A DNA stretch of 64,000 nt from Candidatus Aminicenantes bacterium (GCA_963702005.1 OY969696.1:4192001-4256000); one strand, 5' to 3'. Counted from the first letter of the stretch, positions 7,583 through 45,306 are shown. The notes: generated by a model not told the origin, from the sequence alone. Numbers and translations are program-made.

Positions 7583-7589
7583 CGCCCCC

Positions 7590-14132: not shown

Positions 14133-14155
14133 TTTGTTCTCCATATGCACGGAAC

Positions 14156-16705: not shown

Positions 16706-16732
16706 GGCCCCTCCTTGCCTTATCCAGAACAT

Positions 16733-18382: not shown

Positions 18383-18405
18383 GTTGCCTTCCACCCAAAA
18401 TCTTC

Positions 18406-20952
18406 CTATCCACCGATATAGAAACCCGCGTCACTGGTGTCAGAGAGAGAAGCATGTCTAGTGCTGGTGATTCTTATTGTGTAATCCTCTCCGGAGGCGA
18501 GGTTAGCTGGAATTTTCCATGTGAAGGAACCTTTGCCGTTTTTCCCGATTGACGCGTTGGGAGCAACAACCAAAATAGTTTTTTCCCCTTTGAGCAATGC
18601 GATTCTTACGCTTGTCCCTGCTTTTCCCGTATAATCCCATTGGATTATCTGGGTGGTGCCTAATCTCCATTGCTCGCCTCCATCCGGAGCCCTCACGGTG
18701 ATAGCCGATTGCGGAATATTAAGCTTGGTTACAAATGCATCCAGGCCTCCTCCGAGTATTTTTTGATAGGGAGTTCGCAGAGGAAAAAGTGGAGAATATG
18801 TCTCTCCGGTTAGATAAACGGCCCCATTGGGATCAATCGCGATTCCCCGTCCTCTATCATTCCCATTCCCTCCAAAATAAGTTGAATAAGCGAGTGTGCC
18901 AGTCGGGCTGAATTTAGATAAAAACGCATCGTCCCCACCGCCGCGTGACTTTTGATAAGGATTTTGTAAAGGAAAATCTAAGGAACCTGTTTTCCCAATT
19001 ACGTAAATAGCCCCGCTTCCGTCCAGGGCAATTTGGCCTCCTTGATCAAGCCAAAGCCCGCCGATAAAAGTGGAAAAAGCGATTGAATTACCTGCAGGAT
19101 TAAATTTTGTTACGAAGCCATCCAACGTTCCTTCGTTCGTTTTTTGATAAGCGTTCTTGGTGGGAAAGTTCCAAGAAAATGTCTCTCCCGTAACATAGGC
19201 GGCTCCGGCTTTGTCTAGGGCAATGTCATAAATACAATCCCACCCTGCTCCACCAAGGTAGGTCGAGTAGATGACCGCATTGCCTTCCGGAGAGAACTTC
19301 GATAAAAAGGCATCCCCGTAACCTCGGAAGATATTTTGAAAAGGTGTTTTTAGGGGGAACTCGCGTGAGCATGTATATCCGCCGACATAGGCGCAGCCGC
19401 GGCCGTCCACGGCAATCGCGCGCCCTTCATCAGCAAGGCCGGTGCCCAGGTATGTGGAATAGACAAGATCATTGCCTTCGGGCGTGAACTTAACGACGAA
19501 GGCATCTCTTCCCCCCCCGAATACACTCTGAAAAGGATTCTTCAGAGGGAAATCGTTGCCGGGCGGCCAGTAGAAATAATACAGTCCTGTCCATCCAGTC
19601 ACATACGCGGCACCCGTGTCATCCACAGCAATAGCTTTTCCACGATCCTCGGACGCTCCTCCCAGATATGTGGAATAAGCAAGGGCATTGCCCGCGGGAG
19701 TCAATTTTGTCACAAAAGCGTCGGGACACTCTTTAATCGTCCCCTGGTATGCATTTTGGATTGGAAAATCGTATGAATAAGTCATCCCTGTGATATATGC
19801 GGCGGCAGTTTTGTCCAGAGCTATGCCATAGGCCTCATCAATATCATTTCCTCCCAGGAACGTTGAATAGATCAGCGCGTTCCCTGAAGGGGAGAACTTT
19901 GTCACAAAGACATCGGATTTTCCTTTATTCTTATTCTGAAAGGAGCCTTTGGCGGGGAAATTCGTGGACGTTGTATATCCGACCACATAAGCGGCGCCTG
20001 TGCTATCCACAGCGATGTCCGTGGCGAAGTCGTCACCGCTGCCGCCGAGATAGGTGGAATAGACGAGGATGGGGTCGATGACCAGGTCATGAGCGCGGTC
20101 ATAGCGGCCGACACCAAATCCGTAGGCGTCCTTTCCAATATTAATAAATTCTGAAGAGACTTCGACTTTTCGCCCGTCGATCCACTGATAACTTATCGGT
20201 TTATGGTGCGAGATCTCCCCCAAGGCCGTTTTGACGATAAGATCGCCGCTGGCGTCGATACTGGAATCGCTGACATCTTGATATTCGAAGCGGATATCTT
20301 CGACCCGCGCACCGGGCTTGATGATCCAGTCGTATTCCACCCGGCTCTCCACCCCATAAACTTTCAGGTCGATCCCCGGATAGAGATCCTCATAAAGAAC
20401 GGCCCTTGAGGATGGGATGTCGGTCTGCCATTTCGCCGGGTCATTGCCGATGAAATAATTGACCCGGTTTTCGGTCGGTTCGAGGGCTGTCATTCGAGGG
20501 TGCTTGTTCGCCCCAAGAAAGGCGACCTTGGAAACGTCTCGATTGAAGTTTGCTTCAGTCTCCCGTTCCATCTTTTCGCGGAGAACGGAGTCAGGATCCT
20601 CCGTCAGCATTCTTCTTTTCCATTCCAGGTCATCCGTCTTCCGCTTGTTGATCGTGGCGTCGAACACCAACCCCTCTCTCGTTATCCAAAGCGTATAGCG
20701 CGAGGTTTTCGCATAGAACAGAGACTGACCGTCCACTTGGCCGCGATTGGGAATAAAATAGAGGGGGATTTTTCCATAATCGGGGATTAGCGCTCCCGGA
20801 TTTTGATAGATCGCGGCTTGCGGGAGTTTTTGCGTGACGACGACTTTTTTAGCTTGTTGGATTTGTCCAGCCACCGAGTCCCATGAACCTGAGTGGTCAA
20901 CCGACAGCGCCCCGAATAAGATTAGAGCCGGAATCAGCCTTGACCGTCCCAT
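18406..20952 (-). CDS. SBBP beta-propeller repeat protein (copy B)
   Basis: Paralog of 14156-16705 with the same MGRSRLIPALILFGAL start. Confidence 0.85.
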   Translation of the reverse strand: MGRSRLIPALILFGALSVDHSGSWDSVAGQIQQAKKVVVTQKLPQAAIYQNPGALIPDYGKIPLYFIPNRGQVDGQSLFYAKTSRYTLWITREGLVFDATINKRKTDDLEWKRRMLTEDPDSVLREKMERETEANFNRDVSKVAFLGANKHPRMTALEPTENRVNYFIGNDPAKWQTDIPSSRAVLYEDLYPGIDLKVYGVESRVEYDWIIKPGARVEDIRFEYQDVSDSSIDASGDLIVKTALGEISHHKPISYQWIDGRKVEVSSEFINIGKDAYGFGVGRYDRAHDLVIDPILVYSTYLGGSGDDFATDIAVDSTGAAYVVGYTTSTNFPAKGSFQNKNKGKSDVFVTKFSPSGNALIYSTFLGGNDIDEAYGIALDKTAAAYITGMTYSYDFPIQNAYQGTIKECPDAFVTKLTPAGNALAYSTYLGGASEDRGKAIAVDDTGAAYVTGWTGLYYFYWPPGNDFPLKNPFQSVFGGGRDAFVVKFTPEGNDLVYSTYLGTGLADEGRAIAVDGRGCAYVGGYTCSREFPLKTPFQNIFRGYGDAFLSKFSPEGNAVIYSTYLGGAGWDCIYDIALDKAGAAYVTGETFSWNFPTKNAYQKTNEGTLDGFVTKFNPAGNSIAFSTFIGGLWLDQGGQIALDGSGAIYVIGKTGSLDFPLQNPYQKSRGGGDDAFLSKFSPTGTLAYSTYFGGNGNDRGRGIAIDPNGAVYLTGETYSPLFPLRTPYQKILGGGLDAFVTKLNIPQSAITVRAPDGGEQWRLGTTQIIQWDYTGKAGTSVRIALLKGEKTILVVAPNASIGKNGKGSFTWKIPANLASGEDYTIRITSTRHASLSDTSDAGFYIGG

Positions 20953-21049
20953 CGTCCCTCCTCTCCCCGATCGCAACGACGAACAAAAAGCTGAGCTGAA
21001 GTAATAGGAATCCCCTGTTTGAAACCTATAGCCTCATAGCCTTGGCCAG

Positions 21050-32658: not shown

Positions 32659-33102
32659 TCAAACCTGGATCCTGCGCTCCTCCTTGACGACGTTGAGGAC
32701 GATATGGGTGACGCTCCGGTCCACATAGCGGAGGACGAGGAGGTCCTTGATGAATTTGTTGAGGTCGTCGCGACCCCGGAAGTAGCCGACGATGAGGGAA
32801 TCCCATTCCCCGGTCACGTCGTAGACGGCCATGACGCGGGGGTCCTCGGAGATTCTCTTCTGGGTTTCGAGGAGCTTGCCCTGGGAGATCCGGATGGCGA
32901 TGACCGCGGCCAGGGACAACCCGAAGTGCTCCGGATTGACGTCGGGGACATAGCCGCGGATCGTCCCCCGGCTTTCCATGTCCTTGACTTTATGGATGAC
33001 GGCCGTCACCGATGACCCCACCTCGCGGGCGATCTCCCGGAAGCTCTTCCGGGCGTTCTCGTTCAGTGCCCTGACGATCTTCTTGTCCAGGTCGTCGATC
33101 AT
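32659..33102 (-). CDS. Lrp/AsnC-family transcriptional regulator
   Basis: DDLDKKIVRALNENARKSFREIA HTH and VYDVTGEWD; divergent from glnA. Confidence 0.92.
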   Translation of the reverse strand: MIDDLDKKIVRALNENARKSFREIAREVGSSVTAVIHKVKDMESRGTIRGYVPDVNPEHFGLSLAAVIAIRISQGKLLETQKRISEDPRVMAVYDVTGEWDSLIVGYFRGRDDLNKFIKDLLVLRYVDRSVTHIVLNVVKEERRIQV

Positions 33103-33286
33103 GGCGGCCTCCCTTCATATGTTATCATATTTAGCCTTTTTTTTATCATTTGTCATTAAAAATAATATTTTAGTTGACATTCTTGGAAATTTATGGCCAT
33201 ATGTATAAGCATAATGTATCGGCTCTCCGAAGATAATCTTTTCCGGAGGGCGCCGCTTCCCATCCCACCCAATCCAGGAGGTTTCC

Positions 33287-34690
33287 ATGCATTCCGATTC
33301 CCGTCCCCTGAAAGCTTTCGGCTTTAAGGACGTCCAGGAGGTTCTGGATACGGTTCTCGACCCCGAACATAAGATCGAGTTCATCCGGATCGTCTTCCCC
33401 GACATCCTGGGCCGGCCCATGGATTTCGCCTTCCCCGCCTCGGAACTCAAGGCTGCCTTCCGGGACGGGAAGGGCTTCGACGGCTCTTCGGTCGAGGGGT
33501 TCGTCCGGATCGAGGAAAGCGACCTCGTCATCAAGCCCGACCCGGCGACCTTCCGCGTCCTGCCCTGGACCTACCGGGGCTTTTCGGAGGAGGCCGTCTG
33601 GCGGGAGGGCGTGATGTTCGGCGACATCCTGACCCCGGAAGGCAAGCCTTACGAGGGCGACAGCCGGTACGTCCTCAAACGGATCCTGGCCATGGCCCGC
33701 CAGGACTTCGGCGTCGAGGACATCAAGTGTGGACCCGAGCTCGAGTTTTTCATCTTCCCCGACGACCGGACGCCCCGGGCGATCGACGAGGGCGGCTATT
33801 TCTTCGCGGGCCGCCACGGCGAGGTCCGCAAGGAAATCCAGCTCCTCCTCCATCGGATGGGGATCGAGACCGAATACGACCACCACGAGGTCGCCCACGG
33901 CCAGCACGAGATCGACCTCTGCTATCTCAGCGCCCTGGAGATGGCCGACACCGCCATGATCTTCCGCTACGTCGTCAAGAAGGTCGCCCGGATGCACGGC
34001 CTCTACGCGACGTTCATGCCCAAGCCCATCAACGGCCAAAACGGGAGCGGCATGCATGTCCATCAGTCCCTGTGGAAGGGGGGGAAAAACCTCTTTTTCG
34101 ACCCGGATCATCCCTACCGTCTATCCGAAATGGCCCGGGGCTACATGGCCGGGCTCCTGGCCCACGCCCGGGACATCTCGGCCGTCCTCAGCCAATGGAT
34201 CAACTCCTATAAACGCCTGATCGAAGGCTACGAGGCGCCCGTTTATATCGCCTGGGGACAGCGGAACCGCTCCGCCTACATCCGAGTCCCCGAGTACCAG
34301 CCCGGCAAGGAGCGGGCGACCCGGATCGAGCTCCGCTCGCCCGACCCGGCTTGTAACATCTACCTCGCCTTCGCCGCGATGTTCGGGGCCGGGCTGGCCG
34401 GCATCCGGGACGGCGAGCGGCTTCCCGACTCGGTAGAAGAAAACATATACCACATGAGCAACTCCCGGCAGAAGAAGTTCGAGATCCGGACCCTGCCCCG
34501 CAACCTCGAAGAAGCTCTCCGGGTCATGGAAAAGAGCCCCCTCGTCCGCGAAACCCTGGGCGTCTATCTTTTCGATCGCTTCCTGGCCAACAAGCGCTGC
34601 GAGCTCGAGGAGTACACGGCGAACGTCCCGGGCGAGTTCGACAAGCAGGTCAGCGAGTACGAGGTCCTCCGCTACCTGCCTTTCCTCTGA
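33287..34690 (+). CDS. glnA: Glutamine synthetase type I
   Basis: FDGSS...ESD, GPELEFF, HHEVAHGQHEI, FMPKP...GSGMHVHQS, GYEAP, RIELRSPD. Confidence 0.95.
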   Translation: MHSDSRPLKAFGFKDVQEVLDTVLDPEHKIEFIRIVFPDILGRPMDFAFPASELKAAFRDGKGFDGSSVEGFVRIEESDLVIKPDPATFRVLPWTYRGFSEEAVWREGVMFGDILTPEGKPYEGDSRYVLKRILAMARQDFGVEDIKCGPELEFFIFPDDRTPRAIDEGGYFFAGRHGEVRKEIQLLLHRMGIETEYDHHEVAHGQHEIDLCYLSALEMADTAMIFRYVVKKVARMHGLYATFMPKPINGQNGSGMHVHQSLWKGGKNLFFDPDHPYRLSEMARGYMAGLLAHARDISAVLSQWINSYKRLIEGYEAPVYIAWGQRNRSAYIRVPEYQPGKERATRIELRSPDPACNIYLAFAAMFGAGLAGIRDGERLPDSVEENIYHMSNSRQKKFEIRTLPRNLEEALRVMEKSPLVRETLGVYLFDRFLANKRCELEEYTANVPGEFDKQVSEYEVLRYLPFL

Positions 34691-34729
34691 TTGAATCATT
34701 AGGCTCGGCCGGCGGCTCGCCGGGCGGCC

Positions 34730-34758
34730 TTGACGATCCTAGATCCATGGCTTAGAAT
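34730..34758 (+). promoter_or_regulatory. Sigma70 promoter of the sensory cassette
   Basis: TTGACG-17 bp-TAGAAT. Confidence 0.6.
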
Positions 34759-34809
34759 AATATCTAAGCGTAGGGGAAGATTATCCATCTTCCCTTCCGT
34801 CGTCAACCA

Positions 34810-35157
34810 ATGATGACCCTTAGAGAGATTCGAGACCTGCTCGGCGGGGAATTGCTTACGCCGGACTTGGATCTCGAGTCGGAATATTCAAAGGTTTTCG
34901 CTTCGGATCTGATGAGCGACGTCTTGGCCTACATGGACCCGGGATCGGTCCTGGTGACGGGACTGGTCAACGCCCATGTCGTCCGCACGGCCCGCCTGGC
35001 CGACGCCTCGGCCATCGTCCTCGTCCAGGGGAAACGTCCCGATGCGAAGGTCGTGGGCGAGGCCAGGCTCCACAATCTGCCGATCATCTCGACGGCCTGT
35101 TCCATGTTCGAAGCCTGCTCGAGAATCTCCCGCTCCTTTCCGGAAGGCGACCGATGA
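34810..35157 (+). CDS. DRTGG-domain protein
   Basis: FASDLMSDVLA...LVTGL...VVRTA motif of hydrogenase-associated DRTGG proteins. Confidence 0.8.
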   Translation: MMTLREIRDLLGGELLTPDLDLESEYSKVFASDLMSDVLAYMDPGSVLVTGLVNAHVVRTARLADASAIVLVQGKRPDAKVVGEARLHNLPIISTACSMFEACSRISRSFPEGDR

Positions 35158-35597
35158 GCGAAGACAACGCCCTTCGGCAGGAATTCCAGGTCAAGGGCGG
35201 AGATTTCAGCCGGGCCGGGGAAGTCTCCTGCGAGATCAAGAATCTTCTCAAGGAGATCGGCCTCAGCTCCCAGGTCGTCCGGCGCGCTGCGATCGCGGCC
35301 TACGAGGCCGAGATGAACATCATCATGTACGCCTGGCAGGGCCGTTTCGACCTGTCGGTCACCCCGGACCGGGTCCGGATCGTCGTCGAGGACAACGGCC
35401 CCGGCATCGAGGACGTCGAGCTGGCCCTGAGCGAGGGCTATTCGACGGCCACCCCGGAAATGCGGGAACTCGGGTTCGGCGCCGGTATGGGTCTCCCCAA
35501 CATCAAGAAGAACACCGACGACTTCCGGATCGTCTCGGAGGTTGGCCGGGGGACGCGGCTGGAATTGACGTTCCTGACCAACGGACATAAGCCATGA
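35154..35597 (+). CDS. Anti-sigma factor / Ser-Thr kinase (RsbW/RsbT-like)
   Basis: YEAEMN, DNGPGI, GYSTA, GAGMGLPN. Confidence 0.85.
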   Translation: MSEDNALRQEFQVKGGDFSRAGEVSCEIKNLLKEIGLSSQVVRRAAIAAYEAEMNIIMYAWQGRFDLSVTPDRVRIVVEDNGPGIEDVELALSEGYSTATPEMRELGFGAGMGLPNIKKNTDDFRIVSEVGRGTRLELTFLTNGHKP

Positions 35598-36868
35598 CGG
35601 AAACCAACCGCAACCCGCTTCATATCAACACGGAAAAGTGCATCGGGTGCGTTCACTGCCTGACGGCCTGTCCGACCAAGGCGATCCGGATTAAGAACGG
35701 AAAGGCCCTCATTTTCAACGAGCTGTGCATCGACTGCGGGGAATGCATCCGGTTCTGTCCCCGGGACGCTATCGATTCCCTGACGACCTCGTTCTCGGAC
35801 CTGAACGCCTTCAAATACAAGGTCGCCATCCCGGCGACCCCTCTCTACGGACAATTCGAGAATGCCACGCTCCCCAACGAGATTCTGTTCGCCCTGCGCC
35901 GGATCGGATTCGACTACGTCTACGAGCTCAGCACGATCTGCGAGCTCAACAACTCGGCCATCGAGAAATACATCGACAGCCACGCCAGGCCCCGGCCGCT
36001 CATCGCCTCAACCTGTCCCGTCGTCGTCCGCCTCATCCAGCGGCGTTTTCCTTCGCTCTGCGAACTGATCGTCCCGATCGAACCCCCGCGCGAGATCGCG
36101 GCCAAGATCCTGAGGGCCAATCTGCCCCGGGTTCTCAAGATCGCGCCCTCCGACATCGGCATCATCCACATCACGCCCTGCCCGGCGAAGATAGTCTCGA
36201 TCAACTACCCCGTCTCGATGGAAAAATCCTACCTGGACGGAGCTATCTCGATCCGGGACATCTACAACCCGATCTTTCAAGCCCTCCGGCAAAGCCAGGA
36301 AGATACGATCATGTGCCATCTCTTCCCGGAAACCCTCTTCAGCGGAATCGGGATGGGCACGGCCCTCTCGGGGGGAGAAACGCGGGGTCTCAAGCACCAT
36401 CGGACGGTCGCCGTTTCCGGAGTCCGGGATACGATCCGAGTTTTGGATCAGGTCGAAATGGGTCTTCTCAAAGACGTGGACCTCCTCGAGTGCACGGTCT
36501 GCCCGGATGGCTGCGTGGGAGGCCCGCTGGCCGTCGAAAACCGGTTCCTGGCGAAAAGCCGGATCTTGCGCTTGGTCGGCATGATGGGAGAACGGACCGT
36601 GGTCGACGACTCGGACATGAGCCAGCTCTATCATAAGGACTTCCTGTCTTTTCGCCATCCGGTGCAGCCCGTCCAGGCTCCTCCCCTCGACGGCGATCCC
36701 GCCCAGGCCATACAGAAGGCCAAGCGCCGAAACAAACTCATCAGACAGCTTCCGGGCAAAGACTGCGGGGCCTGCGGCGCTCCCGACTGCCGGACGTTGG
36801 CCGACGATGTCGTTCGCGGCCTGGCGCCCCTCTCCGATTGTCCGTTCACGAACAAGGAGAAAAAATGA
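35594..36868 (+). CDS. [FeFe]-hydrogenase-like putative sensory protein (HfsB/HydS group D-like)
   Basis: N-terminal 2x[4Fe-4S]; divergent H-cluster motifs ASTCP, TPCPAK, ECTVCPDGCVGG; C-terminal LPGKDCGACGAPDC FeS domain. Confidence 0.8.
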   Translation: MTETNRNPLHINTEKCIGCVHCLTACPTKAIRIKNGKALIFNELCIDCGECIRFCPRDAIDSLTTSFSDLNAFKYKVAIPATPLYGQFENATLPNEILFALRRIGFDYVYELSTICELNNSAIEKYIDSHARPRPLIASTCPVVVRLIQRRFPSLCELIVPIEPPREIAAKILRANLPRVLKIAPSDIGIIHITPCPAKIVSINYPVSMEKSYLDGAISIRDIYNPIFQALRQSQEDTIMCHLFPETLFSGIGMGTALSGGETRGLKHHRTVAVSGVRDTIRVLDQVEMGLLKDVDLLECTVCPDGCVGGPLAVENRFLAKSRILRLVGMMGERTVVDDSDMSQLYHKDFLSFRHPVQPVQAPPLDGDPAQAIQKAKRRNKLIRQLPGKDCGACGAPDCRTLADDVVRGLAPLSDCPFTNKEKK

Positions 36869-37206
36869 ACCTGGCCGACATCGTCGAACGGCTTGAGCTC
36901 AAGGTCTACGCCGGGCGGTCGGAGATGGCGCGGACGGTCAGCGGCGGCTACGCGAGCGACCTCCTGAGCGACGTCATCGCCCACAGCCGGAAGGACCAGC
37001 TCTGGATCACTCTCCAGGTCCATCCCAATATCGTCGCGGTCGCCGCCCTCAAGGAGCTGGCGGCGATCGTTCTCGTCAACGGACGGGAACCCGCCGCCGA
37101 AACGACCGCGCGGGCGGACAAGGAGCGGATCCCCGTCTTGGGGACCCCTCTGAGCGCCTACGAATTCGTGGGGAGGGTCTATGGTCTGGGGCTCAAAGAA
37201 AAATAA
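36865..37206 (+). CDS. DRTGG-domain protein
   Basis: GGYASDLLSDV...WITLQVHPNIVAVA. Confidence 0.8.
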   Translation: MNLADIVERLELKVYAGRSEMARTVSGGYASDLLSDVIAHSRKDQLWITLQVHPNIVAVAALKELAAIVLVNGREPAAETTARADKERIPVLGTPLSAYEFVGRVYGLGLKEK

Positions 37207-37952
37207 TGGCGCTCAGGCGCTTCCGGGCCGACCTCCATATCCATACTTGCCTGTCGCCCTGCGGAGAGCTGTCGATCTATCCGCGCAAGATCGTTGAGCG
37301 GGCCCTCGACCAGAAACTCCGGATCATCGCCGTCTGCGATCACAACACGGCGGAAAACGCGGCGGCGGTCCTCCAGGCCGCCCGCGGAACGGGGCTGACG
37401 GTCATCCCGGGCATGGAGCTGACCTCCGAGGAAGAAGTCCACATCCTGGGTCTGTTCCCGACCATGGACGATATCCTTCCCGTCCAGGAGGAGGTGTTCC
37501 GCGGGCTCCCGGCGCTCCCGGCCGAGGACAAATTCCTCAAGGATCAGGTCATCGTCAACGAGGATGACGAGGTCCTGGGTTTCAGCCCCCACTGTCTGTT
37601 CGGGGCGACCCGGCTGACCGTGTTCGAGGTCGTGGAGCTCATCCATCGGCGGAAGGGACTGGCGATCGCGTCCCATATCGACCGGGGAGCGTTCAGCATC
37701 ATCTCCCAGCTGGGGTTCATCCCTTCCGACCTCGAGCTCGACGCCCTCGAGGTCTCTCCCCTGATGACCATCCCCGAGGCCCGGGCGGCCCTCGCTCCTC
37801 CCCCCGACATCCCCCTGGTTCGTTTCTCCGATGCCCATTGCCCCGAGGAGATCGGCCGGACCACGACCGACCTCCTCCTGGCCGCCCCCGTCTTTGAAGA
37901 GGTCCGGATGGCCTTCAAGAGCGGAAAGGGACGGAGGGTCTGCGAACCATGA
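37206..37952 (+). CDS. PHP-domain phosphoesterase
   Basis: DLHIHTCLSPC, CDHN, SHIDR, SDAH. Confidence 0.85.
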   Translation: MALRRFRADLHIHTCLSPCGELSIYPRKIVERALDQKLRIIAVCDHNTAENAAAVLQAARGTGLTVIPGMELTSEEEVHILGLFPTMDDILPVQEEVFRGLPALPAEDKFLKDQVIVNEDDEVLGFSPHCLFGATRLTVFEVVELIHRRKGLAIASHIDRGAFSIISQLGFIPSDLELDALEVSPLMTIPEARAALAPPPDIPLVRFSDAHCPEEIGRTTTDLLLAAPVFEEVRMAFKSGKGRRVCEP

Positions 37953-38494
37953 TGGAGGACCTGTCCCTTCACATTCTTGACATCGTCGAGAACGCCATCG
38001 CGGCCGGAGCGACCCGGATCTTCGTGACCGTGACCGAGGACGAACGACGGGACTTCCTCGGGATCCGCGTGTCGGACAACGGGCCGGGGATGTCGCAACG
38101 GACTCTCCGGAAGGCCCTCGACCCGTTCTTCACCACGAAGGGGAAGCGGACGGGGCTCGGGCTTCCGCTCCTGGCCCAGGCGGCCGAACATTGCGGCGGA
38201 AGAGTGACGATTCGCGCGGCGCTCAACAAAGGGACGAAAGTCGCGGCCCGTTTCCGGCACGGCCACATCGACCGGCCGCCCCTGACGAACATGAAGGGGA
38301 CTCTGATGGTCATCGTCCTCGGCCACGCCGAGATCGATCTCGTCTACCGCCACAGCCGGAACGGGCGCCTCTTCGAGTTCCGGAGCCGGCGCTATCTCAA
38401 GGCCCTTGGACTTTCCGCCGCCCTGACCCCGGATGCGATCCGGGGAGTCTCGGAAGCGCTGGAAGTCGGCCTGAGACGCATCGGGAGAACTTGA
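37949..38494 (+). CDS. HATPase_c histidine-kinase-like protein
   Basis: DLSLHILDIVEN, DNGPGM, DPFFTT, GLGLP, HIDRPPL. Confidence 0.85.
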   Translation: MMEDLSLHILDIVENAIAAGATRIFVTVTEDERRDFLGIRVSDNGPGMSQRTLRKALDPFFTTKGKRTGLGLPLLAQAAEHCGGRVTIRAALNKGTKVAARFRHGHIDRPPLTNMKGTLMVIVLGHAEIDLVYRHSRNGRLFEFRSRRYLKALGLSAALTPDAIRGVSEALEVGLRRIGRT

Positions 38495-38515
38495 AGGTTG
38501 CGGTCCGTGCTTGAC

Positions 38516-38545
38516 TTGACAAAGTCCGAATCGTTCTGCTATAAA
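38516..38545 (+). promoter_or_regulatory. Sigma70 promoter of the NuoE-F-like operon
   Basis: TTGACA-18 bp-TATAAA with an extended -10 TG. Confidence 0.6.
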
Positions 38546-38637
38546 TCCAATCTCATTTTTATGTACGACGCATTTATTCTGAACCCAAACCAACATCCGC
38601 GGTCTGCTAACGATTTCCTAAAACGGGAGGGCTAGCC

Positions 38638-39156
38638 TTGGCTTTCAAGATCCAAAAAACTCAATCCATCATCAAAAAGCACAAGGGCCTTAAGAAGAAC
38701 CTGATCGCGATCCTGCTTGACGTCCAAACCGAGCACAAGTATCTGCCGCCGGAGGCCCTCCGTTATGTCGCCCAAGCGCTGGACATGCCCCTGATCGAGG
38801 TCATCGGTGTCGCAACATTCTACCGGGCCTTCAGCCTCACCCCGCGCGGCGAGCACACCTGCTTGATCTGCCTGGGGACGGCCTGTCATGTCCGGGGGGG
38901 ACCCAAGATCCTCGAGGAATTCGAACGGAAGCTCGAGGTCGAACCCGGCCAGACGACCAAGGACGGTCAGTTCACGCTGGAGACCGTCGCCTGCCTCGGC
39001 TGCTGCGCGATCGGCCCCGTCGTCGTCGTCGACGGAGAATACCACGGCCACGCCACGATCCGGAAGGTCAGCAAGATCCTGGAGAAATATCGGAAGCCGG
39101 AAGCGCCCCCGGCCAAGCCGCAGAAATCGAGTCCGGCCAAGAGCCTAGCGTCATGA
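38638..39156 (+). CDS. NuoE/HydC/HndA-like [2Fe-2S] subunit
   Basis: VATFY, CLGTACHVRG, CLGCCAIGP. Confidence 0.9.
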   Translation: MAFKIQKTQSIIKKHKGLKKNLIAILLDVQTEHKYLPPEALRYVAQALDMPLIEVIGVATFYRAFSLTPRGEHTCLICLGTACHVRGGPKILEEFERKLEVEPGQTTKDGQFTLETVACLGCCAIGPVVVVDGEYHGHATIRKVSKILEKYRKPEAPPAKPQKSSPAKSLAS

Positions 39157-39656
39157 GGAGGATCACAAGAACCATGCCAGTCAAAAAGTCTATTAAAATG
39201 AAGGACAAACCCAAAGCCGAGAAAAGGACTCCGAAAGCCACGGCCGTCCGGAAGGCGCGGCCGGTGGTCGAGAAGAAGAAACTCCGCATCCAGGATTTGG
39301 AAAGAATCCGGGAGAAAGCGCGGGCCACGGCCACGATCCGGGGCAGCGAGGGCCGGGCCAAGGTCACGGTCCACATGGGCACCTGCGGGATCGCCGCCGG
39401 CGCCCGCGATATCATGGACGCGCTCCTGGATGAAATGAAGGCCAAGGACGTCAAGGACGTCATCGTGACGACCTCGGGCTGCGCCGGGCTCTGCAACCGC
39501 GAGCCGATGGCCACGGTCGAGCTCAAGGACCAGCCGCCCGTGAAGTACGTCGACCTGACGCCCGACAAGATCCGCAAGATCCTGGTCGAGCACGCCCTGG
39601 GCGGCCATCCCGTCGTCGCCTACGCCCTGGCCATCGGAAGCGAAACCGCGTACTGA
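39153..39656 (+). CDS. HndB/HydD-like thioredoxin-fold ferredoxin
   Basis: VHMGTCGIAAGAR, SGCAGLCNREP. Confidence 0.85.
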   Translation: MRRITRTMPVKKSIKMKDKPKAEKRTPKATAVRKARPVVEKKKLRIQDLERIREKARATATIRGSEGRAKVTVHMGTCGIAAGARDIMDALLDEMKAKDVKDVIVTTSGCAGLCNREPMATVELKDQPPVKYVDLTPDKIRKILVEHALGGHPVVAYALAIGSETAY

Positions 39657-39665
39657 GAGGGATCC

Positions 39666-41483
39666 TTGAAACAACATCGAACTCACCTACTCGTATGCGC
39701 CGGGACGGGGTGCGTGTCCTGCGGATCCTTCAAGATCAAGGAGGCCCTCGAAAAGGAAATCCGAAAACGGGACCTCCAGGACGAGGTCCTCGTCATCGCC
39801 ACCGGCTGCAACGGATTCTGCGAGAGGGGCCCCATCCTGCTCGTCCAGCCGGACGGAATCTTCTACCAGCAGCTCAAGCTCGAGGACATTCCCCATCTCG
39901 TCGAAGAGCACTTCCTCAAGGGACGTCCCGTCAAGAAGCTGATGTACGTCCCGCCCGCCAAGAAAGAGCCGATCCCCAAGATGAAGGACATCGAGTTCTT
40001 CAAGCACCAGCGGCTCATCGTCCTCCGCAACCGCGGACGGATCGACCCGGAGAAGATCGACGAATACATCGGCTTCGATGGCTATGAGGCCATGGCCAAG
40101 GCCCTAACCGAGATGACGCCCGAACAAATCATCGCCGAGATCACCGCGTCCGGGTTGCGAGGCCGGGGCGGCGCCGGCTTCCCGACCGGCAAGAAATGGG
40201 AGACCTGCCGCCGCGAGAAGGCGACCCCCAAATACCTCATCTGCAACGGCGACGAGGGTGATCCGGGCGCGTTCATGGACCGCTCCGTCCTCGAGGCGGA
40301 CCCCCACGCCATCCTGGAGGGGATGGTCATCGGGGCCAAGGCGATCGGGGCCGGGAAAGGCTTCATCTACATCCGGAACGAATACCCCCTGGCCCTCCAG
40401 CGGGTCGAGATCGCCATCGGCCAGGCCAGGGACTACGGTCTGCTCGGGAAGGACATCCTGGGAACCGGATTCGCCTTCGATATCGAGATCGTCCAGGGCG
40501 CGGGCGCCTTCGTCTCCGGAGAGGAGACCGCCCTGATGGCCTCGGTCGAGGGGCGGATCGCTACCCCCCGTCAAAGGCCGCCCTTTCCCTCCCGGCAGGG
40601 CCTGTGGAAAAAGCCGACCACGATCAACAACGTCGAAACCTGGGCGACCGTCCCCAACATCATCCGGCGCGGCGCCAAATGGTTCGCCGGCCTCGGCACG
40701 GCGGCGAGCAAGGGAACGAAAATTTTCTCCCTGGTCGGCAAGATCAACAACACGGGCCTGGTCGAGGTCCCGATGGGGATCACCCTCCGGGACATCGTCT
40801 ACGGTATCGGCGGCGGCGTTCCCGGCGGCCGCGAGTTCAAGGCCATCCAGATCGGCGGGCCTTCGGGCGGCTGCATACCCCGCAAGCTCCTGGACCTCCC
40901 CGTCGACTACGAAAGCCTGACCGAGGCCGGGGCTATGATGGGGTCGGGCGGCATGATCGTCATGGACGACAGGACCTGCATGGTCGACATCGCCAAGTAC
41001 TTCATGAATTTCCTGCGCGATGAATCCTGCGGGAAATGCGTCTCCTGCCGGGAAGGGACCCAACGGATGTGGGAGATCGTCAAGGACATCACGGAGGGCA
41101 AGGGCAAGGAGAGCGACCTGGCCCTCCTGGAAGAGCTGGCCCAGACCTGCAAGGACGCCTCCCTGTGCGGCCTCGGCCAGACCGCGGCCAACCCCATCCT
41201 GTCGACGCTCCAGTATTTCCGCCATGAGTACGAAGCCCACATCACGGACAAGCGCTGTCCGGCCGGCGTCTGCCCGGCCCTCATCCGCTATCTGGTCATC
41301 GCCGAGAAGTGCACGGGCTGCCTAGCCTGCAAGAACGCCTGCCCAACCCAAGCCATCAAGGGGACGCGCTCGGACATCCATTCGATCGATCAGACGAAGT
41401 GCATCAAATGCGGCGCCTGCCTGGAAGCCTGCCGCTTCGACGCCATCGAAACGCGTCGCGACGAGGCCATTCAGATCATTTAA
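39666..41483 (+). CDS. NuoF/HydB/HndC-like FMN/NADH subunit, long form
   Basis: N-terminal CAGTGC/GCNGFC [2Fe-2S], GRGGAGFPTG, DEGDPGAFMDR, GGPSGG, ESCGKC..CREG, HI...CPAGVC, two C-terminal [4Fe-4S]. Confidence 0.93.
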   Translation: MKQHRTHLLVCAGTGCVSCGSFKIKEALEKEIRKRDLQDEVLVIATGCNGFCERGPILLVQPDGIFYQQLKLEDIPHLVEEHFLKGRPVKKLMYVPPAKKEPIPKMKDIEFFKHQRLIVLRNRGRIDPEKIDEYIGFDGYEAMAKALTEMTPEQIIAEITASGLRGRGGAGFPTGKKWETCRREKATPKYLICNGDEGDPGAFMDRSVLEADPHAILEGMVIGAKAIGAGKGFIYIRNEYPLALQRVEIAIGQARDYGLLGKDILGTGFAFDIEIVQGAGAFVSGEETALMASVEGRIATPRQRPPFPSRQGLWKKPTTINNVETWATVPNIIRRGAKWFAGLGTAASKGTKIFSLVGKINNTGLVEVPMGITLRDIVYGIGGGVPGGREFKAIQIGGPSGGCIPRKLLDLPVDYESLTEAGAMMGSGGMIVMDDRTCMVDIAKYFMNFLRDESCGKCVSCREGTQRMWEIVKDITEGKGKESDLALLEELAQTCKDASLCGLGQTAANPILSTLQYFRHEYEAHITDKRCPAGVCPALIRYLVIAEKCTGCLACKNACPTQAIKGTRSDIHSIDQTKCIKCGACLEACRFDAIETRRDEAIQII

Positions 41484-41491
41484 GAGGGACC

Positions 41492-42184
41492 ATGATCACC
41501 TTTCGCATGAACAACATGATGGTCCAGGCCGAGGAAGGCTGGACAATCCTCGAGACGTCCAAATTTTACGGCCTGGAGATTCCGACCCTTTGCTACCACG
41601 AGGGGCTGACGCCCTGGGGCGGCTGCCGCCTGTGCGTCGTCGAGATCGGCGAAGGCCCCAAGACCAAGCTCGCCTCCTCCTGCACCTACCCGGCCGAGGA
41701 GGGCATCGTCGTCCGCACGGACACCAAGCGGGTTTGGGCAGCCCGGCGGATGATGGTCGAGCTCATGCTTGCCATGGCGCCGGGCTCGAAGCAGCTCCAG
41801 GACCTCGCCTCCCAGTTCGGGGTCACCCAGGTCCGCTTCAAGCCCAAGAACGAGGAGTGCATCCTGTGCGGGCTGTGCGTCCGGATGTGCGCGGAGCAGA
41901 TGGACGGCCGGGCGATCGGGTTCCAGAACCGGGGCCACCGGCGGAAGATTTCGACGCCGTTCGACATCCGCTCCGAGGAGTGCCGCCTGTGCGGAGCCTG
42001 CATCTACATTTGCCCGGCCTGTCAGCTCCGCTGCCAGGGCCCCCAGGCCGAGACGGTCCTCTGCAACGGCTGTCTGACGATGGACCCGACCTGTCTGGAC
42101 CACTTCGACGACCTCCAATGCTGGATGTATGACGCCGGGCGGTGCGGAACGTGCGTCCGCGAAAAACCGACGGCGGGGAAATGA
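41492..42184 (+). CDS. Short NuoG/HydA N-terminal-like FeS subunit with no catalytic domain
   Basis: IPTLC...CRLCVVE...SC [2Fe-2S], CILCGLCVRMC, CRLCGACIYICP and a Cys-rich tail; no H-cluster or Mo/W domain. Confidence 0.85.
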   Translation: MITFRMNNMMVQAEEGWTILETSKFYGLEIPTLCYHEGLTPWGGCRLCVVEIGEGPKTKLASSCTYPAEEGIVVRTDTKRVWAARRMMVELMLAMAPGSKQLQDLASQFGVTQVRFKPKNEECILCGLCVRMCAEQMDGRAIGFQNRGHRRKISTPFDIRSEECRLCGACIYICPACQLRCQGPQAETVLCNGCLTMDPTCLDHFDDLQCWMYDAGRCGTCVREKPTAGK

Positions 42185-42260
42185 ACCGGAGAACGGCTCA
42201 GCCACTTCCATGAACCGGATGACCGATAGACAAATCAGGAACTAACAAGGAGGAACGGAC

Positions 42261-43841
42261 ATGTCTTACACGAAGCTCAATCGAAGCGCGGCGACCCTGA
42301 CCAAGAACAGAACCAAGGGATCGATCAGCCCCTTCAGCGGGATGTGCGTGACCTGTGTGGACGGCTGCATCGGGATGTGCGAGATCGGGAAATCCGCCTA
42401 CCGCGGGACCGAGGTCCTTTATCCCCAGCCGTTCGGCCTGATCACGGCCGCCAGCGAAAAGGACTACCCGGTCGACCTGTCCCACTTCAGCATCATGGGC
42501 ACGGCCGCCGGCGCCTACGGCGTCGAGGCCGACAGCGACAAGGCGACCTTCGAGAAGGTCACGACCGAAACCCGGATCGGCCGCGACAAGGGGATCAAGC
42601 TCCGGCTCCCGTTCGTCCTCGCCGGGATGGGATCGACGAACATCGCCCGGCAGAACTGGACCGGGCTGGCCGCCGGCACGGCCATCTCGGGCTGCATCCT
42701 GACCATCGGCGAGAACGTCTGCGGCATGGACGAGGGAACCGAGATCCGCAACGGCCGGGTCGTCCGCTCGCCCGACATGGAGTTCCGGATCAAGAGCTTC
42801 ACGGACTGGCGGGACCAGGGCTACGGGGCCGTCGTCGTCCAGGCCAACGTCGAGGATACCCGGCTCGGCGTCCAGGAATACGTCATCGAGAAATTGGGCA
42901 TCGAGATCGTCGAGCTCAAGTGGGGGCAGGGCGCCAAGGACATCGGCGGCGAGGTCAAGATCAAGAACCTCAAGAAGGCCCAGCAGCTCAAGAGCCGCGG
43001 CTACATTGTCCTTCCCGACCCCGATGATCCGAACATCATCGCGGCCTTCGAGAAAGGAAGCTTCAAGGAGTTCGAACGACACTCCCGCCTCGGCATGGTC
43101 GAGGAGGAAGGTTTCTACAAACGGGTCGAGGAGCTCCGCAAGGCCGGCGCCAAGTACGTCTTCCTCAAGACGGGCGCCTATCGGCCGGCCGACCTGGCCC
43201 GGGCCGTCAAGTTCGCCTCCAAGGCCAAGATCGACATGCTGACCGTGGACGGCGCCGGAGGCGGAACGGGCATGAGCCCCTGGCGGATGATGAACGAATG
43301 GGGCGTCCCCGTCGTGGAGATCTGGAGCCTGACCTACAAATACGCCCATCAACTCGCCCAAGCCGGCGAGTACGTTCCGGACATCATCCTGGCCGGCGGC
43401 GTGACCTTCGAGGACCAGATCTTCAAGGGCCTCGCCCTGGGCGCGCCCTACGTCAAGGGCGTCGGCATGGCCCGCAGCCCGATGGCGGCGGCCATGGTCG
43501 GCAAGACGATCGGCAAGCGGATCGACGAGGGCCAGATTCCGGTCTACATCGAACGGTTCGGCAACTCGGTCGACGAGATCTTCATCACCGGGCCTGATCT
43601 CAAGCGGAAGTACAAGGACCGCTTCAAGGACCTCCCGACCGGCGCTATCGGCGTCTACACCTACTTCCACCGCCTCAGCCAGGGCCTGCGCCAGCTCATG
43701 GCCGGCGCCCGCAAGTTCGCGCTCCACTACATCACCCGGGACGACATCGCCTCCCTGACCAAGGACGCCGCGAACATCTCGGGCATTCCCTACATCCTGG
43801 ACGTCGACAAGGACGAGGTGGCCAAGATCCTCAAGGGCTGA
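42261..43841 (+). CDS. Stand-alone FMN-binding glutamate synthase family protein (GltB2-like)
   Basis: ELKWGQGAK..GGE, LTVDGAGGGTG, LAGG, LALGA, and N-terminal CVTCVDGCIGMC. Confidence 0.85.
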   Translation: MSYTKLNRSAATLTKNRTKGSISPFSGMCVTCVDGCIGMCEIGKSAYRGTEVLYPQPFGLITAASEKDYPVDLSHFSIMGTAAGAYGVEADSDKATFEKVTTETRIGRDKGIKLRLPFVLAGMGSTNIARQNWTGLAAGTAISGCILTIGENVCGMDEGTEIRNGRVVRSPDMEFRIKSFTDWRDQGYGAVVVQANVEDTRLGVQEYVIEKLGIEIVELKWGQGAKDIGGEVKIKNLKKAQQLKSRGYIVLPDPDDPNIIAAFEKGSFKEFERHSRLGMVEEEGFYKRVEELRKAGAKYVFLKTGAYRPADLARAVKFASKAKIDMLTVDGAGGGTGMSPWRMMNEWGVPVVEIWSLTYKYAHQLAQAGEYVPDIILAGGVTFEDQIFKGLALGAPYVKGVGMARSPMAAAMVGKTIGKRIDEGQIPVYIERFGNSVDEIFITGPDLKRKYKDRFKDLPTGAIGVYTYFHRLSQGLRQLMAGARKFALHYITRDDIASLTKDAANISGIPYILDVDKDEVAKILKG

Positions 43842-45306
43842 GCGTGAAGGACCGCTCCTGCCAGCACGAAGCATGGCCGTTGGGGTCCATGCTCGAAACG
43901 ACGTAAAAGTAGGGGACGCCGGTCCGCAGGCCGCGGAGCTCGACGGCATGCGGGAGCGTAAAGGTCCGGCTGTAGGACGATAGACTCGAGAGGAAGCCGG
44001 ACTTGGTCCCATAAATGACGACGCCGTCGCAGGGCTTGTCCGTGGTCCACTCGATCGAGGCTAAATCCCCGCGCAGGACGTGACGGATGCCCGATAGGAC
44101 GGGGTTTGCGGGTTTTTCCTGGTAATGATCGTCAATGAGCTTGAACGCTTTCTTCAACTGCTCGAAGCACTTGTTGGGCTGGGTAGCGGTGGCATAGACG
44201 TCTTGGTCCTTGTTCCAGCCCAAGCCGTGAAGTTCGAACTCGACGATCAGCTCGGCGATCGCCTCGGGATTATTGGCCTCGCCGCACCGGCTCTGCAGGC
44301 CGGCGATCTGCCCGTAGAGGGGGATGCCGGCCGCCCGGCAGCGGTCCGCCAACTGTTTCAGGAATTCCCGGCGCACTTTGATCCCAAGGCCCGCGTACTG
44401 GGCGACCAGGCCGAGCTCCCGGCATTTCTCGATCAGCCAAAAATTCCTGGCCATCTGTCTCAAGGCGGGATGGACCTTGCCTTTATGGATGAAGTCCTCC
44501 CGGTGGGCGTCCGCGTCGTCCGAGCCGGCGGGATAGACGACGAGCTTCTGATGGGGCTTGAGGCGAGGGAGGATCGTCTGGATGGTCCACAGGACGAATT
44601 CGTCCTTGACGTCCCGGTACCAATCGATGAAGTCGGCGCGGCTGGACGTCGTCAACGACTTGAAACGGGCGGGCTCGGGGACTTCGACCTCGCCGAACGT
44701 CCCGTAGCCGGTTCCCCAGGCTGCGTTCAGCGCCGAGACATCCCGCCCATATTTCTCTTGCATCCGGGCCCGAAAATCCGCGCGGGCCAGCGGATCGTAG
44801 CACCAGAAATACTTGGGGTCGGGATAGTTGGGCTCATTATGCCGCCCCATCGAGGCCTTGACGAACAGGATCAACGGGGCCCATTTGTCGAGGCACAGAG
44901 AAAAGCATCGGTCGATAAACTTTGCCGTCTGGGGCTTGAGCTGGGGATGCCAAAGGCTGATGGGCGCGGATTGAACCCGATCCGGGAGCGGCTCTCCGAC
45001 GGGCTCGTTCCGTTCGTTCAAGTGCCGGGCGTCGGGATACTTCTCCCAGAACCATTTCGGAGCCATCAGGGAGCAAAGCGTGATGTCCAGCCTCAAGCCC
45101 GTGGCGGCGATGGTCGAGATGATATCATCGAAATAGGAGAAATCGAACCTCCCCTCTTCCTTCTCGACCTCGCTCCAGGGAATCCAGAGCCGGACGAACC
45201 TGGCCCCGATGGCCTTGAGGTCCTCCATCCGTCGCCGCAGGGCCGGAAAATTCCTCTTGATAAAATAATACCAAGCCCCCGCCGAATTCCTGGGTGCGAC
45301 CATCAT
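43831..45306 (-). CDS. GH42/GH14-like TIM-barrel glycoside hydrolase with C-terminal Fn3-like domain
   Basis: VRLWIPWSEVEKEEGRFDFS, PKWF, HNEP, FRARMQEKYG...LNAAWGT. Confidence 0.7.
   Translation of the reverse strand: MMVAPRNSAGAWYYFIKRNFPALRRRMEDLKAIGARFVRLWIPWSEVEKEEGRFDFSYFDDIISTIAATGLRLDITLCSLMAPKWFWEKYPDARHLNERNEPVGEPLPDRVQSAPISLWHPQLKPQTAKFIDRCFSLCLDKWAPLILFVKASMGRHNEPNYPDPKYFWCYDPLARADFRARMQEKYGRDVSALNAAWGTGYGTFGEVEVPEPARFKSLTTSSRADFIDWYRDVKDEFVLWTIQTILPRLKPHQKLVVYPAGSDDADAHREDFIHKGKVHPALRQMARNFWLIEKCRELGLVAQYAGLGIKVRREFLKQLADRCRAAGIPLYGQIAGLQSRCGEANNPEAIAELIVEFELHGLGWNKDQDVYATATQPNKCFEQLKKAFKLIDDHYQEKPANPVLSGIRHVLRGDLASIEWTTDKPCDGVVIYGTKSGFLSSLSSYSRTFTLPHAVELRGLRTGVPYFYVVSSMDPNGHASCWQERSFTLSP

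Follow-up and report, generated by a model that had tools for sequence, protein, structure and literature searches.

Among electron-bifurcating enzymes, the Bfu family is at present the class understood least, and the search for further 'third substrates' is under way; its characterised members act on H2, formate, NADPH or aldehydes. Here we describe a 64,000-nt stretch of the genome of a Candidatus Aminicenantes bacterium (OY969696.1:4192001-4256000; hereafter the window, with coordinates counted from its start) in which five tightly packed plus-strand genes at 38638-43841 (gaps of -4, 9, 8 and 76 bp) encode homologues of a Bfu core followed by an FMN-type TIM-barrel protein. Open reading frames (ORFs) were called and their products scanned with Pfam and NCBIfam profiles, which recovered every gene named in a preliminary description of the sequence. 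We propose that the five products form one soluble Fe-S flavoprotein complex of the Bfu (HydABC-like) family whose third reaction is the glutamine-independent interconversion of 2-oxoglutarate plus NH4+ with L-glutamate, a reading to which we give an even chance. In chemical terms, such a complex would be a ferredoxin/NADH-linked glutamate dehydrogenase working on a GltS-type site. The architectural part of the proposal, that the FMN protein stands in the hydrogenase domain's place as partner of the HydBC/Bfu core, is well supported. We infer physical assembly from gene order, and substrate, direction, ferredoxin use and bifurcation are likewise predicted.

The nearest described relatives are the Bfu Type 2/3 members with a short BfuA, namely the NiFe-, Wor-, Codh- and Por-Bfu enzymes (PMC9304861; this and the other papers given by PMC number are cited for the portions of their text available to us). 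They have the same full set of BfuC/BfuB cofactor motifs as the window and likewise combine a short, purely Fe-S BfuA with a catalytic subunit encoded directly downstream. The window system differs from them in its extra subunit, an FMN TIM barrel apparently of the GltS synthase-domain type, and in its BfuA, where no His-ligated cluster motif is present and the Cys-rich tail is peculiar to this BfuA family. It would also differ from them in the high potential of its proposed substrate couple.

Cofactor sites B1, B2, B3/B4, B5 and C1 set bifurcating Bfu cores apart from non-bifurcating homologues (PMC9304861, PMC12018979). The preliminary description placed nuoE-like, hndB-like and long nuoF-like genes here in Hnd/HydABC order, and Pfam bears this out. 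BfuC (HydC; 38638-39156, plus strand, 172 aa) is a NuoE-like [2Fe-2S] protein (2Fe-2S_thioredx, E 1.1e-50) in which Cys 78, 83, 119 and 123 are present. The HndB-like product (39153-39656, plus strand, 167 aa) is a small thioredoxin-fold protein with a weak 2Fe-2S_thioredx match (E 1.7e-05), a Lys-rich N-terminus and three Cys in total. BfuB (HydB; 39666-41483, plus strand, 605 aa) is the NuoF-like FMN/NADH subunit, and all the motifs quoted for it earlier are confirmed: NGDEGDPGAFM at 194-204, GGPSGG at 397-402, TCMV at 437-440 and H525...C531PAGVC536. Its N-terminal [2Fe-2S] site (Cys 11/16/48/52; 2Fe-2S_thioredx at residues 5-81), NuoF cluster (Cys 455, 458, 461 and 501; Complex1_51K, E 1.7e-46, and NADH_4Fe-4S, E 3.3e-34), Cys3His site (C438/H525/C531/C536) and C-terminal pair of CxxCxxCxxxC motifs (549-589; Fer4 at 543-595) correspond respectively to B5, B1, B2 and B3/B4, with BfuC supplying C1, and they therefore make up the complete set of a bifurcating Bfu core. 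In this motif comparison, the window BfuBC agrees with B1-B5 and C1 as defined in the two papers.

The fourth subunit, BfuA (41492-42184, plus strand, 230 aa), contains a [2Fe-2S] motif (Fer2_4), two ferredoxin-type [4Fe-4S] motifs (a 4Fe-4S dicluster match) and a Cys-rich C-terminal tail. It had been described as lacking both an H-cluster and a Mo/W domain, which is correct: Pfam found neither Fe_hyd_lg_C nor a molybdopterin domain in it, nor was the His-ligated NuoG cluster motif detected. The N-terminal 180 residues match the N-termini of group A6 [FeFe]-hydrogenases, HoxU and NuoG (NCBIfam). Without an H-cluster domain, and with HydG and HydF unmatched in the genome, the system departs from the [FeFe]-hydrogenase HydABC. 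The 230-aa length is conserved across an alignment of 29 homologues, in which Cys 34/45/48/64, 123/126/129/133, 164/167/170/174, 181, 191 and 194 are invariant and the tail residues Cys 177 and 218 are at least 90% conserved.

Directly downstream lies the gene for the FMN protein (42261-43841, plus strand, 526 aa), which we propose to be the catalytic subunit. When prokaryotes were scanned with one genome for each species, at least 597 stretches with relatives of this protein came to light, of which the best 80 were taken with up to 8 kb of flank; neighbouring genes were detected by tblastn with the window proteins, and lineage names were taken from record titles. The bacterial loci come from Aminicenantes, Zixibacteria, Planctomycetota/Phycisphaerae, Bacteroidetes, Ignavibacteria, Dehalococcoidia, Acetothermia, Latescibacterota, Coatesbacteria, Riflebacteria, Spirochaetales and Dethiobacter, and the archaeal ones from Thermoplasmata/Thermoplasmatales, Methanophagales and Methanobacteriota. 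In 77 of the 80 loci the gene immediately before the FMN gene encodes a BfuA homologue; BfuB precedes BfuA in 68 of the roughly 70 with enough DNA, and BfuC is found upstream in 62 of the 80. Two of the loci without BfuA (L034 and L044) have no DNA upstream of the FMN gene; the third (L063) has ample upstream DNA without Bfu genes, and a GAF-ANTAR antiterminator-type regulator (7056-7853) directly precedes its FMN gene. Ten of the 12 BfuB misses end at contig edges, leaving as true exceptions L063 and L011, in which BfuA is shortened and BfuB is not upstream. The four-gene core is the only constant across the 80 neighbourhoods, while genes outside it vary. Close homologues of the HndB-like protein (65-75% identity) occur only in L003, L005, L018, L023, L028, L031 and L033. 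Conserved synteny had been suggested as a check on the original proposal, and the BfuA-FMN adjacency and the 68 loci with BfuB make the outcome strongly positive.

The FMN protein itself is unusually conserved, with 67-85% identity to the window copy throughout the sampled lineages. At least 8000 clusters (90% identity) match it at E <= 1e-30, under database labels such as 'FMN-binding glutamate synthase family protein' and 'glutamate synthase domain-containing protein 2'. No fused form of 922-2630 aa was found, which is weak evidence, and the best 120 matches of 289-921 aa, all 514-528 aa long, include no BfuA-FMN fusion. Three departures from the usual gene arrangement were seen. The FMN gene occurs twice within 8 kb in L027, a metagenome-assembled genome (MAG) labelled Dethiobacter alkaliphilus, one copy lying upstream of bfuC. 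A small gene for a '23S rRNA-intervening sequence protein' stands between bfuA and the FMN gene in L031 (7509-7889) and L033 (7503-7892). Crude ORF calls in an Aminicenantes locus (L029:1-8000) suggest two forms of the core in tandem, in the order BfuC, long BfuB, BfuC, short BfuB, BfuA, BfuA and one FMN gene.

These two forms of BfuB recur across the sample. The spacing between BfuB and BfuA is about 1.8 kb in 25 loci, which is the window form, and about 3.1 kb in 43, so that the short BfuB of the window belongs to the minority. In the long BfuB of L039 (1058 aa), Pfam places Fer4_20 and Pyr_redox_2 after NuoF, so that a GltD/NfnB-like module stands where B3/B4 would be. A fusion of NuoF with a GltD-like module thus seems to exist in 43 of the 68 loci, an assignment checked with Pfam in L039 and drawn for the others from spacing and ORFs of 1025-1128 aa. 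A GltD/NfnB-like module is the reductase with which GltS-type FMN subunits naturally pair. A NuoF-type HydB with a glutamate-synthase-small-subunit domain also occurs in archaeal hybrid hydrogenases (PMC11216029). The window BfuB is 81% identical to the long BfuB of L018 and 74% identical to the BfuB of the formate-dehydrogenase-type cluster in its own genome, and given these identities across differing forms, the C-terminal port seems to be exchangeable between close relatives.

The long form shares its building blocks with NfnABC/StnABC (PMC12018979), which likewise combine a NuoE/NuoF core, a GltD/NfnB-like NAD(P)H-FAD module and a BfuA-type cluster chain. In those enzymes the third substrate reacts at the GltD-like part itself, which is joined to BfuA. 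In the relatives studied here that part appears instead to be joined to NuoF, the window lacks it, and in both cases an additional FMN subunit follows. Dihydropyrimidine dehydrogenase (PDB 1gt8) offers another parallel, with a GltD-like NADPH/FAD/2x[4Fe-4S] module feeding an FMN TIM barrel through Fe-S clusters; its barrel, however, is structurally more distant than GltS from a model of the FMN protein (Z 16.2), and the NuoEF and BfuA parts have no counterpart in it.

Several features connect the FMN protein with the synthase domain of GltS. Its only Pfam family above cut-off is Glu_synthase (PF01645; 61.3 bits against a cut-off of 20.4), which covers residues 279-408 and profile positions 185-308 of 369; IMPDH scored 18.8 bits, below its own cut-off, FMN_dh gave no match at E <= 0.001, and there was no match of the DHO_dh type. 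For a canonical comparison, the FMN domains of three GltB proteins from other genomes of the phylum were aligned with the FMN family profile. In the extended hhalign alignment, a K-x-x-QGAK motif (K220-K226, ELKWGQGAK) pairs with the canonical QIKxAQGAK, and DGAGGGTGMSP (DGxGGTGxSP) pairs with the canonical SGxSGGTGASP, the pairing being taken from a local alignment of low mact. We take the QGAK lysine to be catalytic, as in GltS. The CxxCxxxCxxxC motif reported earlier is present as C29-x2-C32-x3-C36-x3-C40, and 32 homologues all keep its four cysteines. The AlphaFold2 model (mean pLDDT 78.6, pTM 0.82) is a TIM barrel with extensions, in which the N-terminal 28 residues and a few loops fall below pLDDT 50. 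The FMN protein therefore reads as a distant member of the superfamily of GltS synthase domains, probably with its Fe-S site moved to the N-terminus.

The comparison with GltBD itself (Azospirillum brasilense, PDB 6s6s) runs along the same lines. QGAK and GGTGxSP motifs in an FMN barrel of the synthase type are common to both, 341 residues can be aligned, and a GltD-like Fer4_20 plus Pyr_redox_2 module is predicted in the operon of 43 of the 68 relatives and confirmed by Pfam in L039. The window system differs in lacking the glutaminase, central and GXGXG domains, the canonical 3Fe-4S cysteines and an operon GltD; its FMN protein instead has the N-terminal four-Cys motif, and electrons would arrive through NuoE, NuoF and BfuA.

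Genes around the relatives of the cluster point jointly to glutamate, 2-oxoglutarate and ammonium, the substrate itself being predicted. ORF clustering placed 13 ORFs of one family in 11 of the 80 loci, immediately preceding bfuC or immediately following the FMN gene, and the three members scanned are glutamate dehydrogenases (Pfam ELFV_dehydrog). Among 67 immediate downstream ORFs, glutamate dehydrogenase (GDH) and Peptidase_M50 are the joint commonest Pfam families with five each, the Peptidase_M50 cases including the window's own lineage. glnA lies in the flanks of eight of the 80 loci (six Aminicenantes-type, one Thermoplasmatales and one Dehalococcoidia), with Lrp homologues beside it in L003, L009, L016 and L020. 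An NrpR-type nitrogen repressor family is present at three loci (one checked with Pfam), and a pair of genes for a histidine kinase and a sigma-54 activator precedes the cluster at 18 (the L039 pair checked with Pfam). In the window, the preliminary description had noted an Lrp and glnA upstream, and both are there: an Lrp/AsnC-family regulator at 32659-33102 on the minus strand (HTH_AsnC-type and AsnC_trans_reg), divergent from the gene for glutamine synthetase GlnA at 33287-34690 on the plus strand (467 aa; Gln-synt_C, E 3.5e-113, and Gln-synt_N). The link with glutamate or nitrogen metabolism drawn there gains from the recurring GDH, GlnA, NrpR, NtrC-like and GltD-like fusion genes, although the glnA linkage is largely confined to Aminicenantes (six of eight).

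The host genome, a single contig of 4.31 Mb with a marker completeness of 94%, was searched for components that the window lacks. The absence of GATase and GXGXG genes noted for the window extends to the whole genome: GATase_2 (PF00310) and GXGXG (PF01493) gave no match in either, while the controls were positive in 13 of 14 and 14 of 14 genomes, respectively. The FMN gene of the window is the sole clear Glu_synthase match. Two GltD-like genes are present, both in Nfn-type contexts and neither in the operon at 38638-43841. HydG had no match and HydF none over cut-off in the genome (HydE was not searched for), so the genome-wide check proposed earlier for gltB1, gltB3, gltD and hydrogenase maturation genes returned only the GltD-like pair. 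There are four NuoF genes, one of them in the window and one encoding 453 aa. At one of the other loci (L102, G000:C1:1378000-1394000), NuoE, NuoF and a molybdopterin-type BfuA form a formate-dehydrogenase-type Bfu cluster with NfnA- and NfnB-like genes immediately after it; at another (L103, G000:C1:372000-388000), NuoF is accompanied by a 231-aa BfuA and by the small and large subunits of a NiFe hydrogenase. Since these other two soluble NuoF modules carry their own partners, a pairing of the window's HydBC with a hydrogenase or formate dehydrogenase encoded elsewhere, raised in the preliminary description as a possible objection, is unlikely. The genome encodes only two Fe_hyd_lg_C proteins, both sensor-like.

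For the complex as proposed, NAD(H) would react at the FMN of BfuB, and BfuC and BfuB would together provide the cluster set that defines a bifurcating core. The C-terminal 2x[4Fe-4S] of BfuB (B3/B4) would serve as the ferredoxin port. The 230-aa BfuA would be a pure electron wire running through its [2Fe-2S] cluster, two [4Fe-4S] clusters and Cys-rich tail, the last of which would deliver electrons to the Fe-S site at the N-terminus of the FMN protein. In this scheme the 'third' reaction would take place on the FMN protein rather than on an H-cluster domain: 2-iminoglutarate, formed from 2-oxoglutarate and free ammonia, would be reduced there by the flavin to glutamate. The GltD-like module of the long variant would bring in an NAD(P)H/FAD site, which could take over from ferredoxin as second donor.

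The couple of 2-oxoglutarate plus NH4+ with glutamate lies at about -0.12 to -0.14 V, far above NADH, so two modes of operation are thermodynamically sensible. In the first, NADH and reduced ferredoxin would be oxidised jointly, drawing ammonium into glutamate without ATP at low ammonium concentrations. In the second, exergonic NADH-dependent amination would drive the reduction of ferredoxin, and could run in reverse for glutamate oxidation. Joint oxidation of the first kind has been proposed for the high-potential Rub- and Nuo-Bfu enzymes (Schut et al., PMC9304861).

A number of observations weigh against a glutamate-forming complex of this kind. The sequence relationship of the FMN protein to GltS is remote: searches of PDB sequences with phmmer and with a 32-sequence profile gave no relevant match, only de novo TIM barrels at E ~1e-3, NCBIfam gave no match, and hhalign of the family profile against canonical GltB reached a probability of 44% (E 2.3e-4). 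The segment of GltB that holds the canonical 3Fe-4S cysteines aligns with Cys-free sequence in the FMN protein. In structure, Foldseek ranked FMN-dependent alpha-hydroxy-acid enzymes at the top (E ~1e-10), and a second comparison gave Z 23.6-24.3 for lactate dehydrogenase/oxidase, IDI-2 and mandelate enzymes and Z 20-23 for IMPDH/GMPR, above the Z 19.2 of the Azospirillum GltS FMN domain (6s6s_A 776-1189), which has the longest alignment (341 residues). Because hydroxy-acid enzymes and IMPDH score above GltS while GltS aligns over the greatest length, the fold by itself cannot settle the family. The preliminary label of the protein as GltB2-like consequently stands in part: the QGAK and GGTGxSP motifs and the Glu_synthase match favour it, while the protein is a remote relative without the canonical 3Fe-4S cysteines and without a PDB match.

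The same side of the balance holds metabolic and energetic points. With four GDH-like genes already in the genome, the need for a further enzyme that makes glutamate is not obvious. The scheme shown for characterised Bfu enzymes (PMC9304861, Table 1) is a mid-potential one, into which a third substrate at about -0.13 V does not fit, and since a GltD-like module replaces B3/B4 in most relatives, ferredoxin use is not a constant of the family. Nor does the distribution within the phylum argue strongly for a substitute for glutamate synthase (GOGAT). In a sample of 151 genomes, the FMN protein is encoded in 16, the host included, and a strong GXGXG match (E <= 1e-40) was found in 47 (46 of 150 without G049, which is flagged unpublished). 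Strong GXGXG matches occur in one of the 16 carriers of the FMN protein (G147) and in 46 of the 135 non-carriers, yet about 89 of those 135 have neither a canonical gltB nor the FMN protein. As related genomes are moreover not independent, the apparent complementarity with GOGAT is a weak trend confounded by phylogeny.

A complex of the same five subunits might instead have an FMN subunit that works on a different compound. It might take some other 2-oxo acid or imine; it might act on an alpha-hydroxy acid, for instance lactate or 2-hydroxyglutarate, as a confurcating dehydrogenase analogous to Ldh-Etf; or it might carry out a reaction of the N-alkyl-glutamate type. Other GltB2-like proteins catalyse non-GOGAT reactions, for example as N-methylglutamate synthase. 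The closest structural neighbours, the FMN-dependent lactate, mandelate and glycolate enzymes at Z ~24, favour such a substrate, as does the weak sequence likeness to GltS, and an adjacent GDH would fit equally a pathway that hands 2-oxoglutarate on to a further reduction. Flavocytochrome b2, glycolate oxidase and lactate oxidase indeed give the best overall fold matches (Foldseek E ~1e-10, Z ~24 over about 290-300 residues), but they have no Fe-S motif and no Bfu context, and the FMN protein lacks a match to their FMN_dh family at E <= 0.001 while scoring 61 bits with Glu_synthase. Its GGTGxSP strand follows the GltS pattern, and against hydroxy acids in particular the GltD-like fusions and the NrpR, GlnA/Lrp and NtrC-like neighbours point to glutamate or ammonium instead. 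We consider another substrate, taken over all these candidates, rather unlikely, though a serious contender.

Alternatively, the FMN protein could be an independent enzyme merely encoded downstream, with BfuABC alone acting as an NADH:ferredoxin oxidoreductase or serving a distant partner. The 76 bp that part bfuA from the FMN gene, against -4 to 9 bp within bfuC-hndB-bfuB-bfuA, would agree with such a separation, and so would the FMN gene of L063 without Bfu genes. An adjacency kept in 77 of 80 loci from bacteria and archaea while the flanks vary makes it improbable, as do the partners already present in the genome's other Bfu-like modules, and the invariant Cys tail of BfuA together with the invariant Fe-S motif of the FMN protein is what would be expected of an electron hand-over. 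A complex prediction for BfuA and the FMN protein, with alignments as input, returned a score of 0.01 and weighs neither way.

The preliminary description had gone further, naming the system GS-GOGAT-like with the FMN protein replacing the hydrogenase. The architecture stands, given the synteny, the separate partners of the other NuoF modules and the absence of any catalytic [FeFe] hydrogenase among the genes found, but the name does not, because an enzyme without a glutaminase domain is not a GOGAT. It could be rescued if a glutaminase of an unrecognised kind, encoded elsewhere, supplied ammonia to a true glutamine-dependent glutamate synthase that cycled with the adjacent GlnA. glnA and lrp do lie directly upstream here and in five more Aminicenantes-type loci, and no other GOGAT was detected in the genome. 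We nevertheless think this very improbable, as there is no PurF-type GATase_2 match genome-wide, no amidotransferase gene is conserved in the 80 neighbourhoods, and 72 of the 80 loci show no glnA linkage. Hardly credible, finally, is a decayed [FeFe]-hydrogenase operon whose hydA has lost its H-domain: HydG and HydF are unmatched, and the DRTGG/HATPase/HydS-like/PHP genes described below and the HndB-like gene presumably resemble the surroundings of classical hydABC operons, but all reading frames are intact, BfuA has kept its length and cysteines in 29 aligned homologues, and about 70% identity of the FMN protein across phyla indicates strong purifying selection.

Full-text literature searches turned up no published description of a Bfu/HydBC cluster with a GltB2-like FMN subunit. 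A GltS-type third reaction is absent from Table 1 and section 5 of PMC9304861, though the supplementary tables of that paper, which list all clades, may hold this one as unassigned; PMC5736913, PMC7325909, PMC9012536, PMC6037941, PMC8097209 and PMC11216029, in the portions available, concern other systems. On sequence grounds we rate the cluster as a Bfu-family enzyme with a putative new catalytic module. The conserved cluster points to an undescribed enzyme joining cellular redox carriers with glutamate and nitrogen metabolism. More tentatively, and with some doubt, we suggest that 'Glt-Bfu' could constitute a third, ATP-independent route of ammonium assimilation or glutamate turnover in anaerobes, coupling 2-oxoglutarate + NH4+ <-> glutamate to both NAD(H) and ferredoxin through electron bifurcation or confurcation. 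If so, the Bfu family would extend into central nitrogen metabolism through an amino-acid- or ammonium-linked member, and its high-potential third reaction would test the proposed Bfu mechanism. A very large and strongly conserved family, now labelled only 'FMN-binding glutamate synthase family protein', would gain a function, and Glt-Bfu would occur in more than a dozen phyla, in thousands of bacteria and archaea that have yet to be cultured. Nitrogen status would be tied directly to the pool of low-potential electrons, with the GltD-fused form coupling to NAD(P)H, and metabolic reconstructions would change for Aminicenantes, Zixibacteria, Planctomycetota, Thermoplasmata and similar lineages that are represented only by MAGs and apparently lack GOGAT.

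Between glnA and bfuC lies a block of six plus-strand genes (34810-38494) that the preliminary description did not mention. In order, these encode a DRTGG-domain protein (34810-35157), a kinase- or anti-sigma-like HATPase_c protein (35154-35597; HATPase_c and HATPase_c_2), a HydS-like putative sensory protein of 424 aa (35594-36868) with two 4Fe-4S motifs, Fe_hyd_lg_C and a C-terminal FeS domain, a second DRTGG-domain protein (36838-37206; 24.9 bits, slightly under the cut-off of 25.2), a PHP-domain phosphoesterase-like protein (37206-37952) and a HATPase_c protein consisting of the histidine-kinase ATPase domain alone (37949-38494; E 4.3e-17). The HydS-like protein scores far below the hydrogenase cut-offs of NCBIfam. 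The second such protein of the genome (G000:C1:1316638-1318725; L091:4639-6726) is fused to HisKA and HATPase_c domains and lies near response regulators and an NfnAB-like fusion. Both may be redox or Fe-S sensors without a [2Fe]H subcluster.

A sigma-70 scan identified a promoter-like site at 34730-34758, ahead of the first DRTGG gene. No site directly upstream of bfuC satisfied the rule of the scan; by eye, TTGACA-N18-TATAAA can be picked out in the 143-bp gap ahead of that gene. No terminator-like site was found on the plus strand after the FMN gene, the 3' end of which is overlapped by 11 nt by a convergent ORF for a GH42-like glycosidase (43831-45306, minus strand). A Peptidase_M50 gene and a TrpRS gene come next downstream, a pair kept downstream in Aminicenantes loci. 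The only public sequencing runs listed for the segment at 38600-43900 are DNA metagenomes from wetland, sediment and soil, mostly with small shares, and no RNA run is among them.

Elsewhere in the window, a minus-strand stretch at 12459-20976 has a lower GC content (0.48-0.53, against about 0.62 elsewhere) and contains a tandemly duplicated gene pair, each copy encoding an FG-GAP-repeat protein (563 and 553 aa) and a DUF7948/SBBP beta-propeller/Kre9-Ig protein (858 and 856 aa); the stretch probably represents an island of surface proteins.

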